64,000 nucleotides of DNA from Nemertoderma westbladi (GCA_032718475.1 JAUCBJ010000045.1:38527-102526); one strand, 5' to 3'; positions 14,806 to 47,109 are shown, numbered from the stretch's first letter. The notes: generated by a model from the letters alone, not told the origin. A program made the numbers and translations.

Positions 14806-15021
14806 ATTGAAAAATGCCATATTCTTCTGATTACATGTAATTCGTCTAGAGCGGTACATTTTGAATTACAAGAAAGTATAGATGCGGAGTTTACTATCCG
14901 TGGTTTAGATAGATTCTTTGGTCGCAGGGGATATCCAGCAACAATTACTTCCATTATCTGAAGTTATTGTTGCTGGATATCCCCTGCGACCAATGAGGCC
15001 ATTGACATTTTACAATCAAGG

Positions 15022-16918: not shown

Positions 16919-19705
16919 GTTTGTTTGCACAGTTGAATGCCTACTGCTATATTACAGTTTAAGCAAGTCTAGTAATTCAGTATTAACTGCTAGCCTAGTA
17001 ATTAATTACCGATACTGCTACTCAGTGTAGCGTGATATATAATATATTAGTATACCGGTATGCTTATAGTATATATAAGTATTATTACAGACTAGTTTTT
17101 TCACAGAAACCGGTATATAATTTTAGCACAAATATATATAAATATATAATAGGCCTATCGTGGATACCGGTATGCAGTTTACACTTATAGTATATATAAG
17201 TATAATTACAGACTAGAATTAATTACAGAATACCGGTATGATTTCAGCACAAGTATATAAATATATAATAGGCCTATCGTAAATACCGGTATATCAATTA
17301 TTTTAAATAATTGAATTTCTGAATTTTAAGGGTTACTTGGTTACTTTAACTTACTTTATTACCGTTATTTAAGCAGTAGTCCAACTGATATTGAGACCTA
17401 ATTATTGTATGGCAGGCCTACTATTTATAAATCGTTTGAGTTGATTTATAATATATATACCCGTTTAATGGGTTTTGTCAATGTTGAAATAAATGTTATT
17501 ATTTCTGGGGGAGTCACTACACATAAGCTGTGAGCTCTCAGTGGAGTGCTACTTGTTAGACACTAAAACAAATAATTCTAATTTACCTAAGTTACTTAAT
17601 ACTACAAATTACGTACAATTCGGGTTGAGATTACAATCTCTAAATAAACACAAAAATTTACAAAAACACAAAATACGAATTTTCAGGGTAATTTTACAAG
17701 AAGTCTACAAACCAGCCTAACAAAGGGTTAGAATTCTGGTTATTACAACGGACAGGGTACTGCGGTATTTGAAAATAATAAGTAGTAGTAAATATACTGC
17801 GTTGTCCAGATAGGAAAATACCACCGCCTGACGACCTATAGCCGTATCGCTATAGGTACTACGTTATGTATCACGGAGTGTTCCTACCTAGAAGTTAATA
17901 GAGCTAATCGAACGTGCCTATCAACCACTTTACAACACAAATATAATGCCTACACTAATTACTTTCGGAAAGCACTGTACACTAAACCCTAAATTAGGTA
18001 CGAGTACTTGTACAACATATAATCAGTAGTTAAATATACTTGAACAGCTAAAAGAACCACGGCATCTGCTGGAGTGACCGGTGCACAAAATCACCAGTCT
18101 TTACCTACGCCAAGCAGCCCGTGTAGTACCGGGGTTAATTTAACTATAGCGTGTATTTACTGTATGTATAACAAACACAATTATTGTAGGAACAAACTTG
18201 GGGAATGAATGTTGCGAATAATCGCATAAACTCTGAATAATAAATATTACGCTACGCGTACAAACCACTCAAACAAAATGCAGACCAAATACTGACAGAC
18301 TACTATCAAGCCTAAACAAACTACGGTATATGCAGACTCCGAAATGATTAAGTAGTATGCGTTCTAACCCAGTAGTACGACTTATTCTTTAGATGGGGGT
18401 TTACCTTACAGCGATGGCTGCCCCTACTTCCTAACCGTTCTTTATCGGACAGATGCTTTGCACACACCGAAATTTCCTCAAACCCAACAACAGCCAGACA
18501 ACTATCCAGCCTACAAATTATCTAAATAAAATTATACGCTACCCGTACAGACTACACAAACAAAGTACAGACCAAACGCTAGTCAACTACTATCAAGCCT
18601 AAATAAACCACAGGACATGCAGACTCCGAAATAGTTAAGTAGTATGCGTTCTAACCCAGTCAGCCAGTAGTACGACTTATTCTTTAGCTGGGGGTTTACC
18701 TTACAGCAATGGCTGCCCCTACTTCCTAACCGTTCTTTATCGGACATACACTCTACATGTACTGTAATCCGTTCAGACCTAATCAACAGTTAGCCAACAA
18801 TCAAGCCTAGAAATTATCTGTACAATCTGAGCAGGGTTACACACCTTCTGCTCAATATCAACCTACTAGTAAATAAAACTGGCAGAAATAAGTAAACTAT
18901 ACAAAAGAATGAGGGGTGATCAATCCCTATTCCCCTGGCAGCCTACAGTATACAATAGATCACAATCGAATAATACTGCTGTACCTGTACTGTTGTAGGT
19001 ACCGGTCCGGATGATCAGGCAGTCAGGCCTACTGGTTACCGGTCGACCGGTACTTTCGACTAGATTGCTTACACCGCAATCCAGAAGCAATATCTGTTAT
19101 TGTTTGCGCTTTTAAAGACCTTTGACAGTTTAACCTGCCAAAATTAGAATGTCCTTTGGATGATAGATAGTCTTTAGCCTATGACGAGTATTTGATACAC
19201 TACATTAGCCGAAGCCAGTCTATGCGCAATCATTCACCCGTTGGATATACCCGGGAGACTGAGTTCGGGGCTTAATGATTGATGGTGTAAGCCTACTGTA
19301 TTATTCGACTGATCGTAATATATAATCTCTGACAAATATTATTCACTTTCGGGAAATATTAACAGTTCCTTTAGGACGTGGCGCTCTAAATATATAAACA
19401 GAGTTATGACTTAAACCAGACACAACGAAAAGGCTATAGATTCACATATATGGCGCATTCTTTAGGAGATGCTTTGTTATCAGTTACACTCATACACAAT
19501 GCTGCACAATACTGCACACTAATCTGCCAACCTTCACTAAATTTGGTCACGTATAAAGAGAGCAACAGACAATTTATGTTGGGCATATGAAATAGCATTA
19601 GATTCACTTCAAACCACTCAACATACATAGGTCGCAATCGTTTATCTGTAACCGGTCTCTCTAACCTTTAGTATATCAAGAAGGTGGGGTGTCTGACTAT
19701 TGATC

Positions 19706-20244
19706 TGTTAGCTTATTCAATCCCGCCAACACCCCATAAAGTTATAAGCCGATAAGCAATATTGGGAGCCACGAGATTGGGCAATTAACCAACTCGTGCC
19801 ATCCCAATAAGAGTGGGAAGGAAGCACACAATAGAGGTTCAGGGGCCAAACCCCTAACCCAGAGAGAACAGGTGGAGTGAACGGGAATACTCCACGGGGC
19901 GCCAACAAGGGTAACAACCAATCAGAGGGGGGCAAGGCATCGATTAGGTAGTAATTAGGCCAACCGTGCAGTATAGCCACTTGGCAGTAATATTACCTAT
20001 TCAGTCATCTCAGTGCAGCAGTGCTAGCGTAGGATAATAGTTAATTAGTTTAGTTAGGGGAGCACGGGACTTTAGTTACCGTATCCCGCCTACCGTATAA
20101 TTCACAATATATCTATATCCTATAACCTATTATTATACACCGAACTTCAGAACTCATTTAACTTCATTCACTCTTTATACACGGCGGGGACGCGTAAACT
20201 GAATACCAACCGGATAAATCGGGATCCTCCTGGATCCCGTCACA
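19706..20244 (+). repeat. 5' LTR of element B
   Basis: TGTTAGCTTATTC...GGATCCCGTCACA, near-identical to 30937-31475. Confidence 0.95.
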
Positions 20245-20324
20245 GTAACTAAATCCGAGCTGCCGCCCCAGTTAAACTCTAAGAACTACACTGCCAGCTA
20301 GCCGAACTCCACCGACCAGACGAG

Positions 20325-23300
20325 ATGAGTGAATCGGGCGAGACACCGACGCGGACCCCGGACGAAGATCAAACGATCCGCGAGGCCGCGACCAAACGAT
20401 ACAGGCCCACGACGCCGGAGCCATCGATAACGGGCGAACCGGAAGCACAGGACGAGGAGGGCCTGGAACCCGAAGTCGAGCCAAGAGGAAGAGAGAGGGA
20501 AACGAAGAGAGACGGAGATGAGTCGACACAGGACGGAGATCGGCGCACTGATGTCGCCGGCCAGCTACAGGCCGAGGGCGACGAGCGGCCCACCGAAACG
20601 GCGACGGTGGGGCCGACGGTGCAACGCCGGACGCAAAGAGACGGAGGAGAGATCGGTACCGATGTCGCCAGCCAGCTACAGGCCGAGGGCGACGGACGGC
20701 CCACCGGAACGGCAACGGTGGAGCCGCCGGTACGATGTCGAACCCGGAGGGACGGAGGAGAGGTCGGCGACGAAGACGTCGGGGTTTCTGAGCGACTTCG
20801 ACGGGCCTACAACGCGACCCGGAAGCTGATAAACGACGCCAAGAAGGAAGGGGCGAAGGTAGACGAGGTGAGACTGAGAAAGCGACTAGGTGAGTCGGAT
20901 AGACACTTAAATTACCTAATACGTTTTGGGCAGAGAGAACTAGCCGGGGAGAGAGCAAAAGGGATTGCCGGCGAACTGTCTGAACTATGGGAGTGTGGGA
21001 GTATGGAACCTAGCGTAGCGCCAGTGTACATAGGGCCATACTTGGTCGATGCCCGGGGAGTAAAATTAGTGGGTTGGAGGGGACCTGAGGGGGGCGAATC
21101 CGAGGTTAACCCCGAGGATTCGGCCTCGTCGGTCGGAGAAAGTTCCGGGAAGCGGGGGAAAGTTAGTAGGTCGGGAAGGCGGAGGGGGTCCGTCGCAACC
21201 GATAAGTCTGCTACATCCTCCGCGAAAGGAAGAGTGGTGAGAGAGATAGGTGCTGCATACCGTCTCGACGTGGCAGAGCAAGGTCAGAAGGAAATGGAGG
21301 AACGGCTAGAGGAGGGGAGAGCGCGGTTAGCGAGGGAAGCGGCATTGATTAAAGAGGCCGGAGAGAGGGTCGAAAGGGCTTTGAGGAGCCTTAGGGAGAG
21401 TGACGAAATAGAGGAAAATGAGTGTAGAGAGCGTGAGGCAAGGGAGGAAAGGGAACGCAGAGAGCGTGAGGCGAGGGAGGACGAGGAACGCAGAGAGCGT
21501 GAGGTGAGAAGGGAAAAGGAACGCAAGGAATATGAGGCGAGAAGGGAAAAGGAACGCAAAGAGCGTGAGGCGAGACGAAGGGAGAGCGCTAGGAGTGTAG
21601 TAGAGTCGGCCAGACGGGACAGCCAGGAGAGTGAGAAGAGAGGGGCAAAGGCTGAGCGAGAGCTAAGGGAATTAGAGAAACGCCAAGGTGAATGGGCAAA
21701 AAATAAGATTAGACGGGCGCACGAGCTGGAACTGGTCCGAGTGTTGCCGTCTGAAAGCGGGGCCGGCTCGAGTATTTTTGAGGAGCCAGGGGCCGTAGAC
21801 ACGTTCATTAATACCCCACTGACAGGGACCGCACGACAGACCCAAAACTGGTGTGACCGTACGGGCGGGGGGGGGTAATAATAATGATGGTACAGTAGAC
21901 GTTGTTAATATTGATAATACCGTATGGGACAACACTAATCAAACCTTTATTACAGGAAATGCTTTGCCTAGTGGTAGTAATTTAAATTTAAATCAGGATA
22001 ATCCCAATATTAATGTAGGAAATAATTCTAATATTGATGTAGTTACGCAAATTAATTCAAATAATCAAAATAATAACCCAAATTCAAACCTACAAAATAA
22101 TTTAAATAACGCAGTTACGCAAAATAATTCGAATAATTTAAATAATGACCTATGCCCGAATTTACAAAATAATTCAGATAACGTAGTCGCGCAGAATAAT
22201 ACAAATGACTTTGTTCCAAACGAGCAAATTAATTCCGTTTCCAATATGGGTGCTATTAATGTAAACACGTCGGGCCTACATAACCGAGCGGAAGAGGGCC
22301 TGGTAGGTCACATAGTCGGTAGCCAGACGGATGAGGGCCTGGTAGGCCACGTAGTTAGTAGACAGGGAGCAGAGGGCCTGGTAGGCCACGTAGTTAGTAG
22401 ACAGGGAGCAGAGGGCCTGGTAGGCCACGCAATAGCAGAGGGAGAGGCGGGGGTGAATGGACCCGACCGCAGTAGGGTTGATGTGTCGACTAGAGAGGTA
22501 TATAATAGCGGGGAGAGAGGTAGCGAAGTTAGATGTAGAGAGTGGGGGGGGGGGGCTACGAGGACCCCACAACAGAGAGTTAGCGGCGAGAGGGGGGGGC
22601 AGGGAGTGTCCCACAGCCGTCAGCGGATAATGCGAGGGCCAAAATAGGTAAACCGCAACAACCGGCAACGGAAAGTAACAGGGGGATTGCGGGTATCCCC
22701 AGCGGCGTGCGACCGAGCAGAGAGAGACAGGTTGACGTCACGAGAGGGCGGACGAAGCGTCGAGCCCGATCAGAAGAGGGAAGAAGAACAGTGGGGTTTA
22801 ACCGGGAGGTCGACGAGAGATCTCGCGAGCGGGAATATTCCACTGATAGGAGAAGAAAGGAAGACAGTAGTAGAAGTATCGCCGCGAACGATAGAAGAGC
22901 GAGGACGGATAGCGAGCCGTCGATAGTCGAGATGAGAACGGAGAGTCAGTGGGGTCGGACTCCGGGAGATTGCCGTCGCCCCGGAGGGATGCGACCCGGT
23001 GAGATGCATTACACGCCGATGGAGGGGTACGCGATGTACCGGTGCGAAGATGAGAACAGTAGAGGGGGGGGTCGAAGAGAAACTTTCCGACGGAATACAC
23101 CTATTGATCGAGAGTACGGTAGCCGCGGGGAGGATTATTCGAGAAGAATAAACTTCGATCCCGAGGGACACATGCAGACTGTAGGACATACTGTAGGCCT
23201 TACTGCACATACCGTAGGCCATACTGAGAGAGGCAATGTAGGCGATAGGATAGCGTGGACAACGGGATTAAACCCGGAAGTCGCGGAATACATACCGGCG

Positions 23301-26192
23301 AGTAGGCCAGAAGCTGATAGGCCTATACCGGTACCAACACAGCAGTATGACTACAGCATGCAGGGACATAACATATACCCAGGGGAGGGGGGAATTATTG
23401 CGGATAGGTGCATGGGCCCCAACATATTAACATCAACCCCATTACCAAACATACCGGTGGGGGGGGGACAGGGTGACATTCCCCCATCACAATATCAACA
23501 ATATACCCCGATGGTAGCAAGAACAACGAGACCCCTGGACGAAAACAGATCGTGTGACACAGATATATGGAGGGGGCCGCTACCCCCAATGACATACCCA
23601 AGCCAGAGAAGGTCAAGAAGTAGGACAGACGGAACGCACCAGACAGGGGAAACTATACAGCACCCGTCGAATCCATTAGAAGCGCAGGCGATAGGGATGG
23701 CCACGTTGATCGATGCTTTGAAAACGAGGATCGAGTTACCACCCGTGGAACCATTCAAGTTCGACGGGAGTAGGCCGGAAGAATATTTACAATTTCGGCG
23801 AATGTATAGTAACGAAATACTAACAAAAAACTTGACGCAGGCGGAGTGCCTAAAGTATCTACAAGTGTACACGGGAGGCCCAGCATACGATATCGTGAGG
23901 CAATATCAGGGAATAGAGGGCGGCTTCACGACAGCATGGCGGGCACTGGATAGGGAATACGGGCACCCGGCCAAGATCATCAGGCAGACGCTGAGAGGCA
24001 TAACATCGGGTGGCCTACAGGACAACCCCATTAGCATTAAGACGTTTGCTAACAAAGTCGAAAAGGCGCTAATCGTACTGAAGACGCTAGACGCGCCGTA
24101 CGAGCTCAATGCGTCCAACAACATCACCACGATAGCACAGGCACTACCGAACTGGCTGCGCAACAAGTGGAGGAAGATCGCTTTCTCCACTCGAGACAAG
24201 AAGGGTGCGGAACCAGGTTTAGAAGAAATGTCAAACTTCTTAAATTACGAGGCTGAACTAATAACGGACCCAGTCTATAGTGAAGATAGCCTGGGAAAGG
24301 GACCAAAGACAGATCACTACAGGCCGAAACCAGAGCACAATACATCAAACGCATTGCCGAGGCTCAGACAATCATTGCCATACGCAGCGACGCAGGGGAC
24401 TGCAAGTCCACAGGCAAACGAAGATAAGACAACATCATGGAACGGACAGGGGAACAATAACAACATGAATAAACATAACCCCAGTACGTCCAGTAGGCCA
24501 AATCCAGTCAATAAGAATAGTAGGGACTTTGGTACGAATATAACTGCGATACGCAATGCATTGTATAAAGAGGGCTACGACCCAAAGAGCAAATGCCAGT
24601 TACACGCAAATGCGCTTCATAAAACCATGAACTGCAGGTACTGGCAGGCGCTACCGAGGCAAGACCAGATAGATTACGCGTCGAGCAATAAAATCTGCTC
24701 GCGATGTGTGAAGAGTGGACACAAGGCCAGGGAGTGCCAAGAGAAGCCGGTCAAGTTTGGCCAAAGGAGAGGCCAAACGATGGCAACGAGCACGGTAGGG
24801 GCGAAGAAGAAAGGCACGGTGTTACTTGGAGTAGTACCGGTGCGAGTGATCGGGGAAGGCAATCGATCAGTAACAACACTAATGCTGGTTGACAGTGGAG
24901 CTGCCTTCACATTAGTCGAGGAATGGGTAGCCGAAGAAATAGGATTGAGAACAAGGCCAAGCAGGATGGCGGTAACAACCATCTCTAGCAAAGATGAGAT
25001 CCTAGAGATGAGGACAGGACGGTGCGCAATTGCAGCAGTGGCACCAGGATGCGATTATGGGGCAACCATCGACCCCATCCAAGTAATAGAGTCAATTAAC
25101 ATCAATGCCAGGCGGCCAACCAACATCGAGGTTGAGCAGTACAAATTCCTGGACAACATTGACTTCTCAATCCCAGACGTGGACGTTAGGAAGGTATCCA
25201 TCATAGTAGGTATGGACTGCCCAACAGCCCACGAAAGAATGCAAACGGTCTTCGGCGAAGACAAGCAGAGCGACCCGGTGGCCATATTAACACCATTCGG
25301 GTGGACACTGACAGGCCCAATTAAGAGTAATATACCATTCCATGTGTCCGAGAGTTCAGGATGCATGGTGCCAGCAACTGACGAGATAGAGGAGAGGCCA
25401 GAAATGGGCAATAGTGGTAGACAGCTAGAAGTAGAAGCAACACCAAGAGAGTGGGCGGAGGAGAATGGTATGAATGCAGAAGATCTAGAGACGATGGGTT
25501 GGAATAAGGGTCCCAGCAAGTATCGGTATGGAGATGGGGAGGAGCGGACGGTGGAGTGTCGGGAGGACAAACCGGAGAAGTGTCCGGTGGAGTGTCCAGA
25601 GGAGCGCCCGGAAGAGACGCCGGTCCGGTTGAGAGGCATACCGACAAGGGGGAAGCCGAGTAAGAATACAAGATGGAAAGGGAGAAGATGTGAGACGATC
25701 AGACCAGGGGCAGAGAAGCCCATGAATAAACATATGGTGGACAAAGGAGGCGGGAGAGTAGGAGGCGTGCTGCGTACGCACGCGGAATTGACAGAGTGCG
25801 AGGGGGCATTACATGGGCAGACATCGTGTATACCGAAGGACGAACGGGGGTCGTTGAAGCCTTTAATGCCAGCACACATATTAAGGGGGAGGCCAGCAGA
25901 GGTGGCATCTAAGATTAAGGAGAAGAACAGGGGCGGCATTATACCGCCGGGTGACACGTTGAAGGGTGGCACTTTGCCGCCAAGGGACGACCACGAGATC
26001 AGAAACATAAATAACAGACAGCATTTGCCAAAACAGGAGAAAAGACCACCTATCGAATTGACAAGGAGAGCGGAGCGAAGAATTAGAGAACCTATAGGGG
26101 GGCAGTGGGAGAGTTGCCTGCTGGAGGAATCACCCCTTGGGTCGTTGAGTTGTCCAACAGGTTGGACTGGGATGGAAGAGTTAGATCCGTAA
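20325..26192 (+). CDS. Element B Gag-protease polyprotein, broken into 3 ORFs by frameshifts at poly-G runs; RT/RNase H and integrase core absent
   Basis: Glu/Arg coiled coil, Asn-rich tract, 42-bp EGLVGH repeats, DUF1759-like PFKFDG...CLKYL...REYG, knuckles CQLHANALHKTMNC and CSRCVKSGHKAREC, protease LVDSGA, AILTPFGWTLTGP, integrase remnant ECEG...PLMPAHILRG. Frame changes map to G runs at ~21867-21875, 22544-22555 and 22592-22599. Confidence 0.85.
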
Positions 26193-26359
26193 AAGGTGCG
26201 GGCAGAGGTGTTACCTGTCTTCTAGAAGGGGCACCTTAAATTGGAGTTAGTGTGGAGTTTAGTCGTCCAAGTTTTGGACTGAGGGGGGTGGGATTGAGGG
26301 CGAGACGCCCTTCCCAAATAAAATAAAATAAAATCGACAAATAAAATAAAATAAAATAA

Positions 26360-27195
26360 AAAATAGTTAGTTAGTTAGTAGGTACGTAGTACCTAGAGTT
26401 AGTTAGTTAGTAGGTACGTAGTGCCTAGAGTTAGTTAGTTAGTAGGTACGTAGTACCTAGAGTTAGTTAGTTAGTAGGTACGTAGTACCTAGAGTTAGTT
26501 AGTTAGTAGGTACGTAGTACCTAGAGTTAGTTAGTTAGTAGGTACGTAGTGCCTAGAGTTAGTTAGTTAGTAGGTACGTAGTACCTAGAGTTAGTTAGTT
26601 AGTAGGTACATAGTACCTAGAGTTAGAGAGTTAGTAGGTACGTAGTACCTAGTTAGAGTTAGAGTTAGAGGGTACGTAGTACCGATAGTTAGAGAGTTAG
26701 TAGGTACGTAGTACCTAGTTAGAGTTAGAGTTAGAGGGTACGTAGTACCGATAGTTAGAGAGTTAGAGGGTACGTAGTACCAATAGTTAGTTAGAGTTAG
26801 AGGGTACGTAGTACCAATAGTTAGAGAGTTAGTAGGTACGTAGTACCAATAGTTAGTTAGAGTTAGAGGGTACGTAGTACCGATAGTTAGAGAGTTAGTA
26901 GGTACGTAGTACCTAGTTAGAGTTAGAGTTAGAGGGTACGTAGTACCGATAGTTAGAGAGTTAGAGGGTACGTAGTACCAATAGTTAGTTAGAGTTAGAG
27001 GGTACGTAGTACCGATAGTTAGAGAGTTAGTAGGTACGTAGTACCTAGTTAGAGTTAGAGTTAGAGTTAGAGGGTACGTAGTACCAATAGTTAGTTAGAG
27101 TTAGTAGGTACGTAGTACCTAGTTAGAGTTAGAGTTAGTAGGTACGTGGTACCTAGTTAGAGTTAGAGTTAGGGGGTACGTAGTACCATTAGTTA
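26360..27195 (+). repeat. Minisatellite inside element B (32-bp unit AGTTAGTTAGTTAGTAGGTACGTAGTACCTAG, then TTAGAG variants)
   Basis: Visible tandem array between the gag-PR ORF and the extra ORF, preceded by an (AAAAT)n tract. Confidence 0.9.
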
Positions 27196-27694
27196 GAGAG
27201 AGAGAGTGAGAGATAAAAGGGGTAAATAGGATATATATATTAGTTAGCAGTAAGTAGAGTTAGTAGCGAGAGGGGGGCATATGAGTACAGCTGGATAAAT
27301 CGTGTGGCCACACGACGCATACTGCTGTACTGCATGGGCCCACAGAGTAGGCCAGAATATGGATCAGAGAATAGAATAAATCCATAGGCAGTAGTAGGTA
27401 GTAGGACAGTAGGATCAAAGCAAACAAACAAATAAATACAATAGGGCTAAAATCGTAAAATAGTGGCAACACAAGGAAAGTCGTTCTAGAACATAATAAA
27501 AGTAACGGACGGAAATTGTAAATTAGGCTGATTTACTAGCTCCGAAATTAATTAGGTTAAATTTAGCTTGAAAGGCGCAATTAAGTAGAAAGTAGGCCAT
27601 TATCGAACTGTACGAAACATCTTAAATACTTCACTCATCTGTATTGCGCCTTGGTAAGGCACCACCCTGCAGGTGAGCGAGTGTAGTGTTCGGA

Positions 27695-30229
27695 ATGGCG
27701 AGTAAGCTGATCAGGAAGAGAAAGGCGGAGTCAGGAGGAAAAGAAATATTGGTGGATTTCACTGAAAGACACCCAGAAGAGAAGACGAGAGGATACTACG
27801 AGAGGTTGGAAAGGGGTCACGCAGCACGAGCGCTGCAGGATCACTTCCGGGAGGCGCACGAACAGCGGTTGGTCGGGACCTACGGGACCCCGTCACTAGA
27901 CAACGCAATCTTCCAACACTTCCACTACGTGGTGAAAGGGGACGAGGCGAAGTTCGGGATTCCGAAGTATCCGAGGGAATCACCGAGGAAGGACTGGAAA
28001 AGATTCATAGAGTCCGTCAACAGAGGAGGATATATGATCCTAGATGACGAGGGAACCGTGGAAAACGAAGCGGGTTCGAGACGAGGAACGGCAGGATCGG
28101 CCAGGACCATACTCCTACATTTGGCCGCGCCAAATGGGGACATCTTCTTATTCGACCTAGGGACGTATGGGAAGAAGGACGGGCCGAAATTAGACCGATT
28201 ACCGAAAGCGGTACAAGTCTTAGTAAGGGAGAAGTCGACGACGAAAGTGGGATCGGCGATTCGCGAGGACGCGGAGAGGATCATCGGTCCGGACACCACC
28301 AACCTCCTGGATATGCAGAAAGTCTTTATGGCTATGACGGCACCGGATGGATTGGGGGTAGTCGAAAACACAGGCCAATGCGGGGCTGTGGCGATGGGCC
28401 AATTATTGGGGCTCGTATGCCACAAACCGATGGACTGGGGAAAGTTTAGGGAAGAATACGGAGCAGAACTAGCGAACTCGCTGAAGTGGGGAGCGAGACC
28501 GGGAAAGCAGGAGGTATATCAGTTTCGCAGAGGAGCGATAAAGGTATATCAGAAGCGATATATCCTGCAGGAGGACTGGATGATGATAAGTTTGCTTAAC
28601 TTATTCATGACCGTAGTTATCGAAAGGGAACCAGGGGCATTTCTGTTATCGGGATCACCCCTAAGCTACAGGAGAGCCTTTAAGACGGCCTTCGACGGTC
28701 TGGTAGACCACCCGGGGCTGAAGGGCGAGTCGGTGTACTACAACAGCCGACATCTGGTAGACGGGGAGACAGATACACCGTATCAGAGATGGGAGCAGCT
28801 AGAGGCGGACAGACGAGAAGCAAAGCGACTGGAAGAAGTCGCTAGACGGGAGAGGATAGAAGCAGAGGAGAGGGAAGAGGAGGCCAGGGCACAGAGTTAC
28901 GGCTTCGAGGAACAGGCGGGCCTAGACGAACTTCATTGGACTTCGTCAGGGAGTTCGGGGGAGTCTCTAGGGCGAGAATTGGGATGGACGGTGGGATCGC
29001 CGAAACAGTCGACGTCGGGGTTGCAAACGATGCCCATACCAGCGGGCGCCGAGGGCGACCAACCGCCAAGGAAGTTAAGGGAGCTAGAGGGATGGAGAGC
29101 TACGGGCGAGAGCCAAGGCGGGAAGGGACATAGTGGATCCATCGGGATACCGGGGTTGGAAACACTACCAGAAGAGGAAGACGACGGCGACGAGTTCGGA
29201 GAGATGCCGCCCATCGAAAGGATAGGCCACTCGGACACGGACTGGGTTGGCGGAAGGGTGGTGACGGCCAGTGGGGCGAGGGCCTTCTGGAACAGATCCG
29301 GCAAGCGGACCTGGGTGCACGAGGAGCCGGCGATGGATTTCGCGGGGAGCACCATCAGGTTGGGCGAGCAACCGGGAACAGCACCACGGATAGTATTCGG
29401 GGAGACGATGCCCGAGAGGGGCGGAGAGATCGACGTAAACAGGGAGAGCAACGTAGAGAAGTTCGCCTACCAGCGACTCCATAGACCGCGGAGATCGCTT
29501 GGGACGAAAGACGAGGTGGGACGGGAGACATTGGTACTCGGCTGCGACTACTGTGGGAGACAGACCCATCGGGAAAGCAGCTGCCTATACCGGTTCCAAA
29601 AGGGAACCTTTTGTCTGTACTGCAGAGAACCAAGCCACAGGATGGGGGCGTGTCCACGGTTGCATAACCGATGTCCAAAGTGCCACTTTCGGGGACACTA
29701 CGGGCGCGAGTGCGACTGGATGAGCGACGAGGAAAAGTTCACAAGATTCGAGGAGTGGGCCGACGTCGGGGCCATGACGCGCCAGCGCATGAAGGCCCAA
29801 GAGTTCAAGTGGGGTTTCTTCCTCATAAACCAGGAGACCCACATGGAAATCATAAAGCGAAGGTTACCGTTTACCTATCAAGAGGTAGCAACGGCGGCGT
29901 CGTTCGCCGGAGTTATGAACACGCAACGGTACCTGGACAGGTGGACACCAGAGAACCGGAGGGAGTTTAGGGATTTCTTGGCGGAACACGTACCAAAGGC
30001 AATGAAAATGATCCTATGGGACGCCACGCGAGGGAGACAACCAGGCCATTCTGAGGGGCCACCGGCGAAGCGGTATCGGGCATTAATAACACCAGCGCCC
30101 AAGGAACCAACGACCGGGATCAGCAAGGAAGTGGCGGCGAAGGTCCGAAAGCAGAAAGCGGATGATGCCAGAGGCACGGTGATAACCAAGAAACGGGCCA
30201 GGGAAGAGGACGTCAGGAGGAACAGATAG
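27695..30229 (+). CDS. DEDDy-type 3'-5' exonuclease (RNase D/WRN/Mut-7/EXD-like) with three C-terminal CCHC zinc knuckles; cargo ORF of element B
   Basis: ExoI YMILDDEG, LLHLA, IFLFDL, LPKAVQVLVREKSTTKVGSAIRED (ExoII), LLDMQ, QKRYILQED (ExoIII-like). Knuckles CDYCGRQTHRESSC, CLYCREPSHRMGAC, CPKCHFRGHYGREC (29543-29713). Basic NLS-like ends. Confidence 0.8.
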   Translation: MASKLIRKRKAESGGKEILVDFTERHPEEKTRGYYERLERGHAARALQDHFREAHEQRLVGTYGTPSLDNAIFQHFHYVVKGDEAKFGIPKYPRESPRKDWKRFIESVNRGGYMILDDEGTVENEAGSRRGTAGSARTILLHLAAPNGDIFLFDLGTYGKKDGPKLDRLPKAVQVLVREKSTTKVGSAIREDAERIIGPDTTNLLDMQKVFMAMTAPDGLGVVENTGQCGAVAMGQLLGLVCHKPMDWGKFREEYGAELANSLKWGARPGKQEVYQFRRGAIKVYQKRYILQEDWMMISLLNLFMTVVIEREPGAFLLSGSPLSYRRAFKTAFDGLVDHPGLKGESVYYNSRHLVDGETDTPYQRWEQLEADRREAKRLEEVARRERIEAEEREEEARAQSYGFEEQAGLDELHWTSSGSSGESLGRELGWTVGSPKQSTSGLQTMPIPAGAEGDQPPRKLRELEGWRATGESQGGKGHSGSIGIPGLETLPEEEDDGDEFGEMPPIERIGHSDTDWVGGRVVTASGARAFWNRSGKRTWVHEEPAMDFAGSTIRLGEQPGTAPRIVFGETMPERGGEIDVNRESNVEKFAYQRLHRPRRSLGTKDEVGRETLVLGCDYCGRQTHRESSCLYRFQKGTFCLYCREPSHRMGACPRLHNRCPKCHFRGHYGRECDWMSDEEKFTRFEEWADVGAMTRQRMKAQEFKWGFFLINQETHMEIIKRRLPFTYQEVATAASFAGVMNTQRYLDRWTPENRREFRDFLAEHVPKAMKMILWDATRGRQPGHSEGPPAKRYRALITPAPKEPTTGISKEVAAKVRKQKADDARGTVITKKRAREEDVRRNR

Positions 30230-30927
30230 GTTTTCAGAGTCGAGGGAGTGAGACTGAGACTGGGACGTGGTGCGCCTGGAAGGCGCCGCGTGGAACGTAC
30301 GAACTACTAAGTACAAATTTAATTAATGCAAATAATCATATAAGTGCAATTTGTATGTACGTACGTAGTAATTAGTAATCTAAAATACATACGTTTGGAG
30401 TAAGTACTATAGTCATACAACCTTTCTCAATTAGCTACTGGGACTGGGGGATAACTGACTATGGCACTATGGACGAGACAACTGACAATTTCACGCTTCT
30501 TGAGTGCGACGGCACGAGAGGGGGGGGAGGTTCGTCAGGAGAGATAAAATAGTCAAAGTGGAGTTGAGGATCGGAGTAAGAGTGCGAAGTGCGGAGAGAG
30601 TGCGAACGCAATTCTAGTGTGGGGGGGGATAATAAGAGGCTGAGTGAGGGACGAGGAGGTCCGGGGGTATGAGAGAGTTAGGGTGAGAGTGGAGAGGAGA
30701 TAGGGCGAAAGTGTTGGGGAAACAAAAGTTGCGTGGGAGGTGAGCGCGATCGGCCCGACATGAGACGCCAGGCACACAGGGTAGCGTCATCATACCCATA
30801 GGGGGCGGCCTGGAAAGCCGACCCCGAGAGAAAAGAATTCCACCCCACACCCGATACTAGATCGGGATCCAGCGGGATTGTAGCGCACTTTTTGGTTGAT
30901 GCTATCTTCTTACCGGGAAGATAGCAT

Positions 30928-30936
30928 GGGGGGGAG
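30928..30936 (+). promoter_or_regulatory. Polypurine tract of element B, preceded by an 11-bp hairpin (30899-30927)
   Basis: GGGGGGGAG immediately before the LTR TG; ATGCTATCTTC-ttaccgg-GAAGATAGCAT. Confidence 0.85.
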
Positions 30937-31475
30937 TGTTAGCTTATTCAATCCCGCCAACACCCCATAAAGTTATAAGCCGATAAGCAATATTGGGAGC
31001 CACGAGATTGGGCAATTAACCAACTCGTGCCATCCCAATAAGAGTGGGAAGGAAGCACACAATAGAGGGTCAGGGGCCAAACCCCTAACCCAGAGAGAAC
31101 AGGTGGAGTGAACGGGAATACTCCACGGGGCGCCAACAAGGGTAACAACCAATCAGAGGGGGGCAAGGCATCGATTAGGTAGTAATTAGGCCAACCGTGC
31201 AGTATAGCCACTTGGCAGTAATATTACCTATTCAGTCATCTCAGTGCAGCAGTGCTAGCGTAGGATAATAGTTAATTAGTTTAGTTAGGGGAGCACGGGA
31301 CTTTAGTTACCGTATCCCGCCTACCGTATAATTCACAATATATCTATATCCTATAACCTATTATTATACACCGAACTTCAGAACTCATTTAACTTCATTC
31401 ACTCTTTATACACGGCGGGGACGCGTAAACTTAATACCAACCGGATAAATCGGGATCCTCCTGGATCCCGTCACA
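30937..31475 (+). repeat. 3' LTR of element B
   Basis: 539-bp direct repeat of 19706-20244. Confidence 0.95.
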
Positions 31476-32045
31476 TGATCAGTATTCCGATATAATAATT
31501 CATCAACAATATAATGAATAACCGACAGTAAAAGCAGTAATATTAATGTATAAATGATTATTAAGTGAATGAGTTAACTTGTGTAACTCGTGATAACAGA
31601 TATACGTTCTATAATTGAGCCTACTAATGTAAGACTAAAGACTGAAAACACGGAGGTGCCAAAAGCCGGTTCTTAGGCTCTGGGCAAAAACATAACACTG
31701 AACTACTGAGTTTCTGTATACACCTCCAACACAGAGACAAAAAACGCTCTGATTGGTCAACCGAACAACGAGAGAACAAAGAAACAAAGAAACGTCGACG
31801 TGGCAATATCAGCTGTTAGCCGTCGTCATGGTAGCGACACTGTTTTCAAGAGTATCTAGCTTATCGCGTCACGAGATTGCGGATTATGTCCTCTAAAGTA
31901 TAAATACAGTACAAATACATAAGAAATGACTTTTATGTCCTCTAAAACACCAGTACAGCAAGGACACGGCCTTTTTATGCCTGGCAAACCAACTACAGAG
32001 TACTTTAAGGGAAAATAACCGGTTAATGACGCAAAAGCTTTTACA

Positions 32046-33363
32046 GTAACTAACGCTGAAAGATAGATAATTTAACGCTCTATAAGAATGTTTAAATACG
32101 TCTCCCAGACGTTGAGTAGTTTTCGAGCTAGACGTGTTTCCGCGCAGTGAGTTAAAAAAAGTAAAAAGTAAATTTTCTTCGGCCGCTTGGCCAGGGATTA
32201 CGCACAAAGTCTGACGACTTATTTCCAGTGCGGTCCCCCCAGAACTTTACTCCCCAGAGGAAACTCCAGTACTCATTTAGCTACCACTTAAGGATGCAAG
32301 GCAGAGATGAGCCCTGGCTGGTCCCTTTAAAGCATTCGTGCCGAAACGAAAACTGCCCTGGCCCATGTGAGGATCGAACCCACGACCTACAGGAGATGGA
32401 ATTCAATGCAACCACTACACCAAGGTGGAACCGAGTTTGAAACGCGAAATTTTAATATTGGCCCTTATTTTTTCAATATCGTTTGCGCAGCAAAACCAAT
32501 CGAATATTTGGATTCCCCGTATCGATATTAACCGTATAAAATGTACCTTAACTATGTAGAGTCAAAAATAAAAAAGTTATTAGTTATAAACATTTTATCA
32601 TTTTCCGGCCCTTTTTGGACCCTTTTGCCAACATATTGTTTGTACCCCCATTCGATAGGATCGTAGCCCCTGTGGTGTTTTATGCATTCCGAAAAAGAAT
32701 TGGCGGATTCCTACTAGCGTTGTCGAATTAAAAATTTCGGAAATATAAAATATATAAAAAAGATGAGAAAAAACGGACAAAGTTACGGCCCCTTTTTCCA
32801 CCCGAAATTTTAATAAATATCTTACCCCCATTCGATACGAAGATAACGCCACTCTTCCCCTTTTAAACTGCGTTACTTTCGTCCCCGTACGATTAATATT
32901 AGCCGAGTTGTAGTGGATCCAGCAAAGTCATTTTGTCCGTTATTCTAACTTTGACGGACAATAGACGGAAAAGTAACTCGGGGACCCCCTATTTTTAAAG
33001 CTGTAAAAATCTAATTTTGAGTCCCTCTTTACGTTTCAACGATAAAAAAAAGTACTTTTGCCCGTGGTTTTTGTAGTTAACATAGAACCTAATGTTAAAA
33101 TCGACAAAAATTGGAACGAAAATTGTCCGTCATGTCCGTCAAACAGATAGAATGAAAAAAGGGCCAAGCTAAGAATCTTAGAATAAGCCCGCCCGTCTCC
33201 AGTTCGAAAATAAAGAAATAATAGTTGCTAGTTTAGGAGTTACCATGGGAAACACTCGTTTTCGGGATAACGTTATAGATCCTCCGGTATTAGGAGCGGC
33301 CGTATTAACCTCACTCACACGGCCGCGATTGTATAAAAGTGAAAATGGTTTCTTCCCACCAAG
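32046..33363. repeat. Interspersed repeat copy 1 (target of the A2 and SINE insertions); probable non-autonomous DNA element
   Basis: Highly similar to 35201-36233 once the SINE is removed; both end in GAAAATGGTTTC.TCCCACCAAG. Confidence 0.85.
32154..32432 (-). mobile_element. tRNA-derived SINE with a Deu/Nin-like central domain
   Basis: Minus strand has A box TGGTGTAGTGG, B box GGTTCGATCC, core CTCTGCCTTGCATCCTT...TAAATGAGTACTGG...CTGGGGAGTAAAG and a (TTTAC)n tail. GAGTT flanks both sides. Absent from the paralogous site at ~35305. Confidence 0.8.
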
Positions 33364-35200: not shown

Positions 35201-36233
35201 GTAACTAACGCTGAAAGATAGATAATTTAAAGCTCCATAAGTCTGTTTAAATACGTTTCCCAGACGTTGAGTAGTTTTCGAGCTAAACGAGTTCCCGCGC
35301 AGCGAGTTTGAAACGCGAAATTTTAATATTGGCCCTCAATTTTTTAATATCGCTTGCGCAGCAAAACCAATCGAATATTTGGATTCCACGTATCGATATT
35401 AACCGTATAAAATGTACCTTAACCATGTAGAGTCAAAAATAAAAAAGTTATTAGTTATAAACATTTTATCATTTTCTGACCCTTTTTGGACCCCTTTGCC
35501 GACTTATTTTTTGTACCCCCATTCGATAGGATCGTAGCCCCTGTGGTGTTTTATGCATTCAGAAAAAGAATTGGCGGATTCCTACTCGCGTTTTCGAAAT
35601 AAAAATTTCGGAAATATAAAATATATAAAAAAGATGGAAAAAACAGACAAAGTTACGGCCCCTTTTTCCACTCGAAATATTAATAAATATCTTACCCCCA
35701 TTCGATACGAAGATAGCGCCACTCTTTCCCTTTTAAACTGCGTTACTTTCGTCCCCGTACGATTAATATTAGCCGAGTTGTAGTGGATCCCGCAAAGTCA
35801 TTTTGTCCGTTTTTCTAACTTTGACGGACAATAGACGGAAAAGTAACTCGGGGACCCCCTATTTTTAAAGCTGTAAACATCTAATTTGGAACCCTCTTTA
35901 TGTTTCAACGATAAAAAAAGTACTTTCGCCCGTGGTTTTTGTAGTTAACATAGAACCTAATGTTAAAATCGACAAAAATCGGGAAGAAAATTGTCCGTCA
36001 TGTCCGTCAAACAAATAGATTAAAAAAAAAGGGCCAAGCTAGGCGTCTTAGAATAGGCCCGCGCGCCTCCAAAACGAAAATAAAGAAAAAATAGTGGCTA
36101 GTTTAGGAGTTACCATGGGAAACACTCGTTTTCGGGATAACGTTATAGATCCTCCGGTATTAGGAGCGGCCGTATTCACCTCACTCACACGGCCGCGATT
36201 GTATAAAAGTGAAAATGGTTTCATCCCACCAAG
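35201..36233. repeat. Interspersed repeat copy 2 (uninterrupted)
   Basis: Direct repeat of 32046-33363. Confidence 0.85.
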
Positions 36234-36392: not shown

Positions 36393-38963
36393 TCAAGGGG
36401 GTGGAGGTGGTGGGGTAGGGGGAACCTCGTTACACCAGTTCACTGCGTGACAATCGCTCAACTCCATGCCACTAGTTGCATACCATCGTTCGATACATTC
36501 CCCATCACAGAAGTCTGCCACACAGGTTGGCCCTTCAGACATATGGTTAATACAATAGAAACAGGGGTCGCACAGTTCCATGCATTTCTCCGCCGCGGTC
36601 TCGAGATCGCATGGATCGCCTACACCATCGCCGTCGCAGTCAATTACATTGTTAAGACGGTCGTAGAATATAGCGTGACATCCGCCGCAATAATTGGGCT
36701 CGCAATGAGCCTCCAGGTGGGCCGGACACTCTGCGAATTCGCAGGGATTCACAAAACACAAAACTTCATGAACTCCGGGCGGACACGGACAATCATCGTC
36801 ATCACCACAATCAACAAGGTTGCTGTCCTCGTCGAAATAGTCAGCGAAACAACCGCCACAGTAGTTCGGTCTGCAGTGCGCGTAAGGATGATTGGGGCAC
36901 GAATGTGTGCGACAAGGATCTTCGTTACAACGCAGCACCGCCACACCGTTGGGACAAGGACCAACTTCCTCGCAATCTACCACTTGGTTATCACTGTTGT
37001 AGAAGACGGCATTGCAACCGCCGCAGTAGTTTGGTACGCAGGTGGCGTCGGGGTAGGAAGGACATGTCGCTCGGTCGCAAGGATTCCACATACACGTCGT
37101 GTCGTAGGGAACGCCGGGACTACAAGGGCCGCCGATCGGTTCGCAATCGACTACAGCGCCGTTCTCATCGACAAAATAGTAGCTGCAGCCGCCACAGTAA
37201 TCGCGGACACAGGTGGCCTCAGGGTTGGCCGTGCAGACCTTCCCTTGGCACGGATCCTCGTAACAGGTATGCAACTCCATACCGGAGGCACACCATGTTG
37301 TAGTGACGCCATCTAGAGGTTCCATACAGACACGCTGACAGCCGTCCTGACAACAACGTTGATCTTCTCGACACTCCCCATCGTGATCGCATTCGTCATG
37401 GGGAGCTACGCATTCTGTTCTGGAGAGCGCCGGTACGTGGGGACAAACACCCGGTTTAACTATCCACGAAGGCAAACATGTCCGTTTGCATCCGTTCCAA
37501 CAACATTTCTGCCATTTTCCTTCGCAATCGTTATCACAACAACAGTCATCCACCACACCAAACGGACAAAGAGTAAGTAAAGGAGATACTACAGGAGGAC
37601 AGGATCCTATTTTCACCTTTTTACAAGGCCAAACGCATGGCTGAACGCATTTATATTGGCATCCAACGCGGCAACATTTATACTCTTTAATAAAACACTC
37701 ATTATCACAATCACATTCGTGGATCACTGGTTTTGGAAACAACATGGGGAAGAAAGGTTGCTTTGGACATTTCCCAATTCGAAGAAATTGGCAAGGGAGA
37801 ACTGGTCTTTGACATATTTTCCTGCATCCGTCGAAGCAACATTTATTGGGAGATTTGCAATCCTCATCGCATTGACATAAATCGATGCTCGGATAAGGGC
37901 AAAACAAAGGATAGCAGAGCAGTTTCGGACAACTTCCGATTCTCTCAAATAAACAAGGACAATCAGGTGGCTTACATAACCTGGTACATCCATCGTGACA
38001 GCACTTCCAGTCACCTTTACAATCGTCATCGCATTTACACAAAGGTTCTATGAGATCTATAGGACAATATGGAGGTATCACAGGCTTTGGACATTTACAA
38101 GGCTTCTCGGTGTTACATGGAACATTTAGAGCTTCAACACAAACAAATTTGCAACCATCCGAACAACACTTGGAGTCTCCTTTGCAATGTTTATCGCACA
38201 TGCATTGATGGGGAGGAGGGTACAAGCATGGCGGCTTGATCCACGGATTGGGACAATGACCTGGTTTCGGAATGTCATCTAAACATGGAGCCAATGACAC
38301 AGGCGGGAGACAAACTTTCTTGCAACCCTGATAGCAGCATTTATAATTACCAAAACAATGTTCATCACATTCGCATTCATGGGGTTGGACAGGGGCGCAA
38401 TCGGAAAACAGAATGGAATTTACCAGTTGACAACTACCTGGTTTTTCTATGGCGCATGGCGGTAGTGGGGCTGGGACATGGCATGCACTTTTACAGCCAT
38501 CGTGACAACACTTTTGGTCACGGTCGCAATGACTGTCGTCTTGGCAACTAGACATATCGTCTATGAGACAAGCTTTGTTCATTCTCGATACAATGGGGCA
38601 ATTACCCGGTTTAGGAGGACTTTCAGGATCAACACAAGCATAGCCGCAACCAACACGGCAGCATTTGAGAAGACCATGACATTCATGATCGTAAGTGCAC
38701 TCGGTAGGGCATTCCGCCAGGGCGATGTAAGAGTCGCGATATTGGGGACAGACCCCTGGTTTGACAGACGGTCCGATCGGAATAGCCTCTTTCGCCTCCA
38801 ATTGAACGAATTCATCATGAAGACCAATGTATGGTAACTGTACCTCTTGTAACTCTACCTCTATCTCTGGCACTATGTGCAAAGTATCTCTCGGTACTTC
38901 AGCGCATTGCACCCCATGGTATACAGAGGTAATGGCAGACAGCACCACTAAAATCCACCACAT
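36393..38963 (-). CDS. Secreted multi-WAP (four-disulfide core) protein: signal peptide, 9 WAP domains, 4+1 'PC...C...P.A.C..nYCGGC' repeats, poly-Pro tail; single coding exon
   Basis: MWWILVVLSAITSVYHGVQC signal peptide; nine KPG.CP/RIG.CP...C..D..C....KCC..GC...C units; AATAAA on minus strand at 36278-36283. Confidence 0.9.
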   Translation of the reverse strand: MWWILVVLSAITSVYHGVQCAEVPRDTLHIVPEIEVELQEVQLPYIGLHDEFVQLEAKEAIPIGPSVKPGVCPQYRDSYIALAECPTECTYDHECHGLLKCCRVGCGYACVDPESPPKPGNCPIVSRMNKACLIDDMSSCQDDSHCDRDQKCCHDGCKSACHVPAPLPPCAIEKPGSCQLVNSILFSDCAPVQPHECECDEHCFGNYKCCYQGCKKVCLPPVSLAPCLDDIPKPGHCPNPWIKPPCLYPPPHQCMCDKHCKGDSKCCSDGCKFVCVEALNVPCNTEKPCKCPKPVIPPYCPIDLIEPLCKCDDDCKGDWKCCHDGCTRLCKPPDCPCLFERIGSCPKLLCYPLFCPYPSIDLCQCDEDCKSPNKCCFDGCRKICQRPVLPCQFLRIGKCPKQPFFPMLFPKPVIHECDCDNECFIKEYKCCRVGCQYKCVQPCVWPCKKVKIGSCPPVVSPLLTLCPFGVVDDCCCDNDCEGKWQKCCWNGCKRTCLPSWIVKPGVCPHVPALSRTECVAPHDECDHDGECREDQRCCQDGCQRVCMEPLDGVTTTWCASGMELHTCYEDPCQGKVCTANPEATCVRDYCGGCSYYFVDENGAVVDCEPIGGPCSPGVPYDTTCMWNPCDRATCPSYPDATCVPNYCGGCNAVFYNSDNQVVDCEEVGPCPNGVAVLRCNEDPCRTHSCPNHPYAHCRPNYCGGCFADYFDEDSNLVDCGDDDDCPCPPGVHEVLCFVNPCEFAECPAHLEAHCEPNYCGGCHAIFYDRLNNVIDCDGDGVGDPCDLETAAEKCMELCDPCFYCINHMSEGPTCVADFCDGECIERWYATSGMELSDCHAVNWCNEVPPTPPPPPP

Positions 38964-39479
38964 ATTTAGGGAATGTAGTAAGTATTTTAAATCGTTATCT
39001 CTATTTCCACGATGGGTCAGTTATGCGCCACGCGGAAACAAGTAACTATTTTTAAACATATTTAATGGATTAAATAGAAATAACGAATGAAACTGATGGG
39101 TCGGGATATAATAATAACACTATGAGAAAATTACTCGCGGTTCATTGAATCGCCACGTGTTGCACTGGATGGACAAAGAAACCATTCCAACTCACTCAAC
39201 CGTTTTTTTCTCAAACAATTTCATTTATTCCTAATTTATTAAAACGTAAGTATAAAAACCCTGGATAGAGCAATATAACAATAACACAAGTTTAATCTGT
39301 GAATAACCATTCCGGATTTGTTATTACTTGGTAATATTCGTGTGCTTAGGAACTACAACAGTGGTGCGTGGCTCGAGTTTTGGATCTCCAGTTTCAAAAA
39401 ATTGTTTCTCAAAGTTTCACAAATAAAACAAATTATATACTCCAAACAAGAATCGTAACCACAACTAAACTTAATCTAC

Positions 39480-39701: not shown

Positions 39702-41960
39702 GTGTTGCTGCAGGTATAAATCCTGCCTTTAAAATTACTTATTTTACCAATTTACCCAAAATACTGTATATTTATTGATAAAGGACCAGTTACGGTATCA
39801 TATTGATTTGTTTCTTACAAATTATTCTTTAGTAAAGGTTCTTACGCCATCTAGTGCTATTACACCTATATTCGATCTAATTTCTGTTGTATGGCCTACT
39901 AAGCCTCAAATGGAATACGTGAATACGTGAATTGGCTAGGCTCCTTGCTGATAAAGCTAGTATGTATATAAGTGCAGTTGTGCTATGATTGATTTCTCTC
40001 TCTTTTTGTTATTGTTTGACAGAAGAAGTCGCACTGCCCATGCAGAGGCTTTGTTCCCCGGTCAAGTTTAATTGACTGGTGGTTATTACAGGCCTAAGGT
40101 CTAAACTTAAAGAGTTAATAATTGAATTGTAATTATTCATCGCTACATTGTATATTCTACTGGTTTATTCAATTTATCTTTATTATTTGCTTAATATATC
40201 GCCGATATTACGTAATCAAGGAGGTTTTACACGCGCCACAACAGGTGGGTGCTGTAACTAAGTATCAGTGATAATCTGGACAATTGTATTAGATTCGTGT
40301 GTTGTCTTACCTCTGACTTACTAAATAATTAATATATGGCGATATTTCAGACCATTAATGTAAGCAAAGCTCTCGTTATTAATTACATCACGATTGAGAG
40401 TTGTCACAAATTGAAAATGTAGCGATATCGATATATTTAGACCCAAAGACTTGTCACTATACGTTTCCTCTAAAGGGAAACACAATCACCAGTCTTGAGT
40501 TCTTACAGAATTAATTAGTCAGTCATTTACTTGTTATACTTTGTTGTCACACCCTCCCGGTATAGTATCTCAGTTAAATACAATAGATAATCAAATACCG
40601 TATTGAACTAAGTGAAATATAGAGCAAATCAATACATCAATGGGAGAAAGGGTAAATAAACAGATACAGTGAGCGGCCCTTGTTGACAGGTACACAGGCG
40701 CAATCCCGTTTATTGTATCAGACCGGACATCTTGCCTTCATTTTTGCATGGTTTATTAAGTAACAGAAAAGAGTCAAAATATATGAAAATTGAGAGTGAA
40801 AGAACATAATTTACTAAAAGCGCTAACAGTAATAACCAACTCTCAGCCCCCCTCGAGTGTTTTTGATTTGCTTATTTGTTTGGTAAGCTTTATTTTCTCT
40901 AATTTTCGACTGACCATCGTAATTAGTAGGAATTTGTGCATAAATATTTATTGATTAATATTCTAGACCTGGTCCGTTTATTGTATTTTTTGGTAAGTAT
41001 TTTGCAAGTATTTGATAAACTTATTTACTGTTGTATAACCGGAGAGTGTAAAGGAGTACTTTATATATCGTTATTTATAATTGGTGTATTTGTTGTTTTT
41101 TGCTTTCACGTATTGGTGAGTTTTGAACATTAACTGATAGCGCCCTATGTATCATTGGACGTTGTAAGGCGTAGACGTTCGTTTTCTACTGTAAGCCGGG
41201 TACAATAGGTAAATTCCCGCGGCAATAATTCTAGATTGGTCGGGTCAGATAATAGACGGAATCTGTTAGCGCTTTTAGTAAATTATGTTCTTTCACCCTC
41301 AATTTTCATATATTTTGACTCTTTTCTGTTACTTAATAAATAAACCATGCAAAACTGAAGGCAAGATGTCCGGTTCGATACAATAAACGGGATTGCGCCT
41401 GTGTACCTGTCAACAAGGGCCGCTCACTGTATCTGTTTATTTGCCCCTTTTCCCTTCGATGCATTGATTTGCTCTATATTTCACTTAGTTCAATACGGTA
41501 TTTGATTATCTATTGTATTTGACTGAGATACTATACCGGGAGGGTGTGACAACACAGTATAACAAGCAAATGACTGACTAATTAATTCTGTAAGAACTCA
41601 AGTCTCGGGGAATAAAGCCTCTGCATGGGCAGTGCGACTTCTTCCTTCAAACAATAACAAAAAGAGAGTAAAATCAATCATAGCACAACCACACTTATAT
41701 ACTAGCTTTATCAGCAAGGAGCATAGCCAATAAGCATCACGTATTCCATTTGAGGTTTAGCAGGCCTTTACAGTAGAAATTAGATCGAATATAGGTGTAA
41801 TAGCGCTAGATGGCGTAAGAACCTTTACTAAAGAATAATTTTTAAGAAACAAATCAATATTATGATACCGTAACTGGTCCTTTATCAATAAATATACAGT
41901 ATTTTGGGTAAATTGGTAAAATAAGTAATTTAAAGGCAGGATTTATACCTGCAGCAACAC
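39702..41960. mobile_element. Foldback/long-TIR non-autonomous element
   Basis: 39702-40060 is the reverse complement of ~41605-41960, and ~40492-40825 of ~41265-41603. The left arm has ~430 extra bp. No coding capacity and no clear TSD. Confidence 0.8.
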
Positions 41961-46955: not shown

Positions 46956-47109
46956 CTGAATCAGAATCAAAAAAATATATAAATGTATTGAAATGATTTA
47001 GTAATCTAATTTATACTGAGAGCGAGAGCATCCATGACCCATATACAAACTACAGTAGACTAGCTTATTAATACCTATATATATAATACCTAAACATTTT
47101 ATAAATAAT

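Follow-up and report, generated by a model that had tools for sequence, protein, structure and literature searches.

A predicted DEDDy-type nuclease-knuckle gene as selected, lineage-wide cargo of BEL/Pao retrotransposons: an element of Nemertoderma westbladi and its relatives

An LTR retrotransposon of 11,770 bp in Nemertoderma westbladi carries an additional gene, ORF3, whose product joins a predicted DEDDy-type 3'-5' exonuclease domain to three CCHC knuckles, and this gene is almost certainly a selected component of a whole lineage of BEL/Pao elements. The copy described here lies in a 64,000-nucleotide stretch of DNA (the window), and its anatomy, obtained by ORF, repeat and profile searches, comprises the following features.

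19701..19705, plus strand: left target-site duplication TGATC, a 5-bp repeat; runs X1 and X3 contain an empty-site joint, 19701->31477
19706..20244, plus strand: 5' LTR, 539 bp, 99.6% identical to the 3' LTR
20283..22647, plus strand: N-terminal gag-region frames 20283-21878 and 21823-22647, without Pfam match
22584..26192, plus strand: gag and aspartic protease ORF with Pfam matches, the final ~280 aa matchless
26365..27198, plus strand: tandem array of 32-34-bp units inside the non-coding spacer
27695..30229, plus strand: ORF3, 844 aa, its ATG in GGA-ATG-G context
27917..28642, plus strand: predicted DEDDy-type 3'-5' exonuclease domain, ~aa 75-316, D117-E119-D192-Y289-E293
28910..29530, plus strand: predicted disordered linker, ~aa 406-612, pLDDT mostly <50, preceded by a charged helix at aa 362-402
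29543..29900, plus strand: three CCHC knuckles, then a helical segment conserved in the family; conservation among the relatives is highest here
30928..30936, plus strand: polypurine tract, G-rich, directly 5' of the 3' LTR
30937..31475, plus strand: 3' LTR, 539 bp, 2 differences from the 5' LTR
31476..31480, plus strand: right target-site duplication TGATC

The element is a non-autonomous BEL/Pao derivative. The definition used for the family includes LTRs of 0.2-1.2 kb, a target duplication and a polypurine tract (PMC8742986), all of which are present; both LTRs have TG...CA ends, and the near-identity of the LTRs (2 mismatches over 539 bp) and the TGATC duplication bear out the first-pass annotation of this DNA, as does an uninterrupted sense ORF, put there at ~845 codons, between gag-protease and the polypurine tract. 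The gag ORF at 22584-26192 contains DUF1759 at aa 393-531 (Pfam, E 1.2e-10), an aspartic protease at aa 740-922 (Asp_protease_2, E 3.5e-5) and a weak CCHC at aa 700-720, and a Pao gag-pol profile made from 16 related gag-pol proteins matches the element at E 2e-31 over its gag and protease parts only. No reverse transcriptase (RT), RNase H or integrase was found in the element with the gag-pol profile in six frames. A candidate integrase C-terminal remnant at 26090-26239 was rejected, its profile E being 4.4 and Pfam giving no match. The gag region is split over three overlapping frames, and the overlaps hold G homopolymer runs (21867-21875 and 22592-22599), so that decay and assembly error are indistinguishable in this region. 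Between gag-protease and ORF3 lies a 1.5-kb non-coding spacer with the 32-bp tandem array. The family definition also names a primer-binding site for tRNA-Arg or -Gly; no TGG start of such a site was seen behind the 5' LTR of the window copy, and in several relatives the primer-binding-site region begins TGGCGCCC.

The element is inserted into a high-copy repeat (19094-19705 and 31476-31800, with another copy at 4807-5402) of which empty-site contigs exist. Nested BEL/Pao fragments occupy 3-16951 of the window, among them a gag fragment at 3-2540 (minus strand), a gag-protease at 8580-11642 that jumps to a post-RT piece and is thus another RT-less derivative, an integrase at 12117-13853, and gag at 13799-14692 (plus strand). 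Downstream of the 8580-11642 element, a 204-codon ORF with a Cys/His-rich end (6046-6660, minus strand) has no Pfam match and is unrelated to ORF3. The remainder includes a single-frame host gene of 875 aa whose product has 9 WAP domains plus additional Cys-rich repeats (36393-39020, minus strand), a laminin-G-like ORF (46285-47010, minus strand) adjoining a 41-bp satellite array of ~240 copies (46980-57000), a pair of 930-bp direct repeats with 94% identity (32432-33363 and 35303-36233), and two elements with long inverted arms (39702-41960 and 12806-14968). No other homologue of the exonuclease domain or of the knuckles was found within the 64-kb window.

The N-terminal domain of ORF3 is predicted to be a DEDDy-like DnaQ fold in which the ExoI D-x-E and the ExoII D are present. 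D117 and E119 lie at nt 28043 and 28049, the positions given earlier, the ExoII D192 lies at nt 28268, and the ExoIII residues Y289 and E293 lie at nt 28559 and 28571 with D294 next. A Y-x3-ED variant had been read at ExoIII, and those residues are there, but once the family is aligned the fourth acidic residue proves to be E293 and not D294; the pattern Y289-x3-E293 in place of Y-x3-D is common to five other proteins that cluster with the window protein at weak support (0.83). As a single sequence ORF3 has no match in Pfam or among PDB sequences, so that its identification as a nuclease depends on the family profile and the structural model; a word-index search with residues 60-360 or the family alignment likewise gave no match, and with the knuckle alignment it returned 8 unnamed proteins. 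The family profile matches EXD2 (E 9.6e-14), Egalitarian (7e-6) and WRN (2e-5), and when built without the window protein it still scores that protein at E 4e-29. The model of the exonuclease domain (pLDDT 79, pTM 0.79) has Nibbler as its best structural match (Z 14.7, rmsd 3.2, 196 aligned), with the apPol exonuclease domain, Drosophila Nibbler and WRN (Z 13.8) within 1 Z unit of that match; the apPol, WRN and Klenow exonuclease domains match at Z 12.5-14.3 and EXD1 at Z 11.9. For the full-length model the best Foldseek match is Trypanosoma brucei RNase D, a viral fold search with ORF3 gives exonucleases, and the Atlas lead for ORF3 (0.94) is a cluster with PF01612 on 34% of its members. The earlier assignment to the DEDDy fold is thus upheld by the structural check. 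No transmembrane stretch was found in ORF3 by hydropathy, the maximum over 19 residues being 1.3, and the N-terminus is charged, in agreement with the earlier view that a protein lacking signal peptide and transmembrane segment is not an envelope protein; the absence of a hydrophobic anchor, the charged N-terminus and the exonuclease fold matches together speak against an env glycoprotein.

The knuckles, described previously as three CX2CX4HX4C motifs, are all three exact and start at aa 617, 640 and 660 (nt 29543, 29612 and 29672). No solved-structure sequence match beyond chance was found for the knuckle-helix module, for which the Atlas leads are all <0.9. The module also occurs in other settings: at L047:3341-6529 and L059:6880-9648 (motif strand) an ORF behind BEL pol carries it with a different, acidic N-terminal part and the exonuclease domain undetected, P0058 has a homeodomain behind it, and in P0001 it is present twice.

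Within the host, ORF3 is under purifying selection. Across three DNA runs, representing two samples, contigs span all 30 element bins and include thousands of variant contigs, with empty sites present among the contig joints and a minority of host copies lacking 29707-30252, which removes the end of ORF3. Among the best-supported 40 of 86 variant sites in the exonuclease region, 32 are synonymous against 12.7 +/- 2.9 expected, an excess matched in 0 of 20,000 simulations and corresponding to a dN/dS of roughly 0.12, and none falls in a catalytic codon. The selection that had been suspected from the open frame is thus seen in dN/dS, both here and in relatives, where values for the exonuclease domain run from 0.04 to 0.53 (20 of 22 hand-picked, non-independent pairs giving a value).

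A HMMER search with ORF3 recovered 74 relatives at E <=0.001, nearly all through the knuckle region, and those of at least 450 aa that were aligned (n=40) mostly have a common N-terminal domain. A degenerate pattern for knuckles 2-3, which matches 59 of 75 proteins, was used as a scan motif and gave at least 120 loci in metagenomes, 80 of them with flanks, and 0 matches in viral contigs. Among these, BEL/Pao gag-pol lies upstream on the same strand in 38 of the 44 flanked loci with at least 3 kb upstream (the six others being L005, L008, L012, L032, L052 and L071), and the exonuclease domain is present in 50 of the 58 flanked loci with at least 1.8 kb. Pao Pfam families were detected in 25 of 30 long neighbouring ORFs tested (30 of 32 listed), and many of the neighbouring pol ORFs are whole polyproteins of 2,100-2,400 aa. 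By its genomic neighbourhoods ORF3 is standard cargo of autonomous relatives and not peculiar to an element devoid of RT and integrase. The proposal that this element lost RT and integrase while keeping the ORF holds in its first part, both being absent here, and has to be amended in its second, the gene being carried by autonomous relatives too. The trees of pol and ORF3 have 12 of 17 splits in common, with a Mantel r of 0.93 (20 of 26 loci, six with short pol pieces having been dropped), and one of eight strong ORF3 splits conflicts with the pol tree (20 loci); ORF3 has thus been inherited together with pol across deep divergence. A BEL integrase from the window, of unknown ORF3 status, was placed unresolved among the ORF3-bearing lineages in a quick pol tree, so that the ORF3-bearing group was not recovered as monophyletic. 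At L051 (7342-12108, motif strand), L033 and L060 a further gag-pol follows shortly after ORF3, which suggests tandem elements or collapsed assembly, and the ORF3 frames of L051, L005 and L043 reach 1,400-1,600 aa.

The catalytic residues are unevenly retained. The alignment of the catalytic columns has 91 rows, including some protein/locus duplicates, and 46 of the 83 complete rows carry D-E-[D/E]-Y-[D/E], whereas a separate clade of 22 rows (support 0.997) is without the catalytic set. Despite this loss the dead clade is still under purifying selection, with exonuclease-domain dN/dS values of 0.04-0.48 (9 pairs).

DEDDy ORF3s are known from LTR elements of bdelloid rotifers, namely Juno, Vesta and Athena/Terminon (PMC5408684), an account repeated in several reviews (PMC6431247, PMC5718144, PMC6338049), and the earlier mention of DEDDy cargo in rotifer retroelements is confirmed by it. 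As in Juno and Vesta, an RNase D-like DEDDy gene without a transmembrane segment occupies the env position; it lies downstream of pol in the relatives, as it does in those elements, and after gag-protease in the window copy. The rotifer proteins have a variant acidic set (DEED) and no demonstrated function, and a variant set (Y-x3-E) occurs here too. By published description, the rotifer elements are gypsy-like, not described as BEL/Pao, and carry a dUTPase, whereas the window lineage is BEL/Pao. Their ORF3s are described without a knuckle array, only with a Cys-His-Cys motif in two, and are called recent acquisitions with no clear departure from neutrality, in contrast to the selection and deep co-inheritance found here (PMC5408684); the accessible text of the paper makes no mention of "nematode" or "CCHC".

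Outside retroelements, the mitochondrial RNase D of T. brucei, TbRND, likewise combines a DEDDy domain with a C-terminal CCHC array (PMC7797062; PDB 7C42-7C4C), but it is a cellular enzyme in which a short linker carries four fingers, whereas ORF3 has three knuckles ~300 aa downstream and a family-specific helical tail, at ~15-18% identity. Nibbler/Mut-7, EXD2, WRN exo, EXD1 and Egalitarian share the fold and the layout of ExoI, ExoII and ExoIII; they differ from ORF3 in being host genes without the knuckle module, with 13-19% identity and without its Y-x3-E. Within BEL/Pao, for which the ICTV profile lists gag, pol and sometimes env only (PMC8742986), the env-bearing elements Tas, Cer7, Cer13 and Atlas also have extra coding sequence after pol (PMC8742986, PMC554778, PMC9094657). 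Their additional gene encodes a membrane glycoprotein, whereas ORF3 encodes a predicted soluble protein of nuclease fold. For nematode Cer/Tas elements an exonuclease-like domain may have been described before. The word "exonuclease" is absent from the accessible main text of four BEL/Pao papers (PMC3118150, PMC554778, PMC6238403, PMC9094657) and from the main text of PMC7084138, and the available portions of PMC2754532 and PMC13172572 hold nothing further on a BEL/Pao DEDDy gene or readthrough. A search of openly available main texts gave no report of either.

Two candidate modes of expression emerge. The ORF3 of the window copy starts with an ATG of its own in good context; ahead of it there are three other ATGs and, at 27232, a TATA-like run. 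The splice acceptor ccctgcag suggested earlier at ~27672 fared poorly, having 9 pyrimidines in 18 positions, fitting the donor consensus equally and ranking below the element's 12 YAG sites with the highest pyrimidine content; no conserved acceptor before ORF3 stood out in 28 relatives. Among the 41 relatives' loci that hold both the pol end and the exonuclease domain, pol ends in TGA-C in 14 (ORF3 itself in 5 of 63), pol is in frame with ORF3 in 11 of these 14 against 9 of the 27 others, and a stem of at least 8 bp, beginning ~9-11 nt downstream, is present in 14 of 16 loci of the readthrough type but in 2 of the 25 others, counts that are not independent, since the loci are related. Over the first 100 codons past the stop, the pol frame contains 4 stops, whereas the other two frames average 26, and TGA is the pol stop in all 12 loci whose frame continues directly into ORF3; 4 of the 14 TGA-C loci are not directly open. 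The arm sequences of the stems differ yet still pair, with a common TCGG bulge, and spacers in readthrough-type loci range from 463 to 866 nt. The cassette of UGA, 9-bp stem and TCGG bulge is seen at L007, L029, L031, L034, L065, L066, L068, L069, L076, L080, L021 and L039.

The UGA-C and 3' stem of these relatives are predicted to form a readthrough signal of the alphavirus (Type II) kind. What they have in common with the Type II signal of alphaviruses and tobraviruses (PMC3159437) is a UGA-C, in these relatives often UGA-CGG, with a stem-loop ~9-11 nt downstream; two of the present loci, L031 and L034, have TGA-CAA-TTA (UGA-CAA-UUA) at the pol stop. Unlike the viral cases, the predicted readthrough would join pol to an accessory gene, and the window copy is without it, having a TAA stop and a 1.5-kb spacer with stops where the cassette was sought. 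ORF3 is also separate from pol in 25 of the 41 relatives which, with the fusionless window copy, indicates that packaging by fusion is not general. In readthrough-type loci the post-stop linkers are poorly conserved and ORF3 keeps its own conserved Met, so ORF3 may also, or mainly, be made alone. Most readthrough-type elements belong to the dead clade, while L029 and L076 keep the catalytic set.

The reading tentatively preferred, and given slightly less than even weight, is that ORF3 is an accessory protein that would bind the element's own RNA and handle 3' ends in its ribonucleoprotein. RNA bound by the knuckles would be passed on to the nuclease domain, by analogy with Trypanosoma RNase D, in which the knuckles raise RNA binding and cleavage (PMC7797062), and the nuclease would trim or hold 3' ends of nucleic acids while the particle assembles and reverse transcription proceeds. 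UGA readthrough would, in some relatives, extend Gag-Pol by ORF3 and thereby bring the protein into the particle; the window copy would produce ORF3 as a separate protein, translated from the ORF3 ATG on a subgenomic or spliced RNA, with RT and integrase borrowed in trans. The survival of dead versions under selection suggests RNA binding as the core, and it is likely that binding is the core function of ORF3 and cutting optional.

The main rival, rather unlikely, is that ORF3 is an anti-silencing factor that acts on host small RNAs (piRNA/siRNA or precursors) by trimming, degrading or sequestering them or, in an alternative form of the same idea, acts as a decoy for partners of host Nibbler/Mut-7/EXD1. 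Nibbler as best structural match and the match to EXD1 (Z 11.9) agree with such a role, a soluble, separately expressed protein suits the window copy, and for the rotifer ORF3s a part in silencing has been suggested (PMC5408684). The fold does not name the substrate, however, since the DNA-acting apPol and WRN domains come within 1 Z unit of Nibbler, and the predicted Gag-Pol fusion of relatives suits a role in the particle better; together with the loss of catalysis in a selected clade, this fusion points to a role in the element's own ribonucleoprotein over anti-silencing.

Catalytic loss bears also on an improbable third explanation, by which ORF3 would be an adaptor comparable to Egalitarian, its nuclease fold being used chiefly to bind RNA without cutting it, and so to localise or protect that of the element, and its acidic residues being a dispensable ancestral trait. 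The 22-row clade (0.997) is without the catalytic set yet under purifying selection, only 46 of 83 complete rows carry that set, and Egalitarian is among both profile and structure matches; against this, most other, very divergent branches keep the set, including the window protein, and no catalytic-codon variant is found among the best-supported 40 of 86 host sites. A DNA-acting helper for cDNA proofreading or end-polishing, like the WRN or polymerase-I exonuclease domains, is very doubtful: the apPol, WRN and Klenow matches (Z 12.5-14.3) would fit it, and readthrough fusion behind integrase would put ORF3 at cDNA ends, but most readthrough-type elements carry a dead domain and the window element itself lacks any RT or integrase that ORF3 could assist in cis. 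The neutral, one-off capture of a host gene, which the missing Pfam, PDB-sequence and word-index matches of the single protein might have suggested and which the first-pass annotation had set against its own reading, is virtually eliminated by the finding of a multi-copy host element, several lineages of relatives and selection.

For the family as a whole, opinion is evenly poised on a wider picture in which an ancient, undescribed BEL/Pao lineage would be defined by a fourth core gene, the DEDDy-knuckle protein, delivered in some branches by UGA readthrough behind integrase as a pseudonuclease and made in others as a separate active nuclease, a counterpart of Nibbler and Egalitarian that processes RNA of the element or works against piRNA silencing in animals. 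With an accessory nuclease gene conserved and selected over a deep lineage, the question raised by the rotifer elements, namely how a retroelement benefits from DEDDy cargo, finds a tractable case. Active and dead forms of ORF3 occur naturally and can be compared, and the relatives add a predicted recoding signal testable by a simple reporter. The anti-silencing reading, if true, would make ORF3 a rare instance of transposon-encoded counter-defence in animals.
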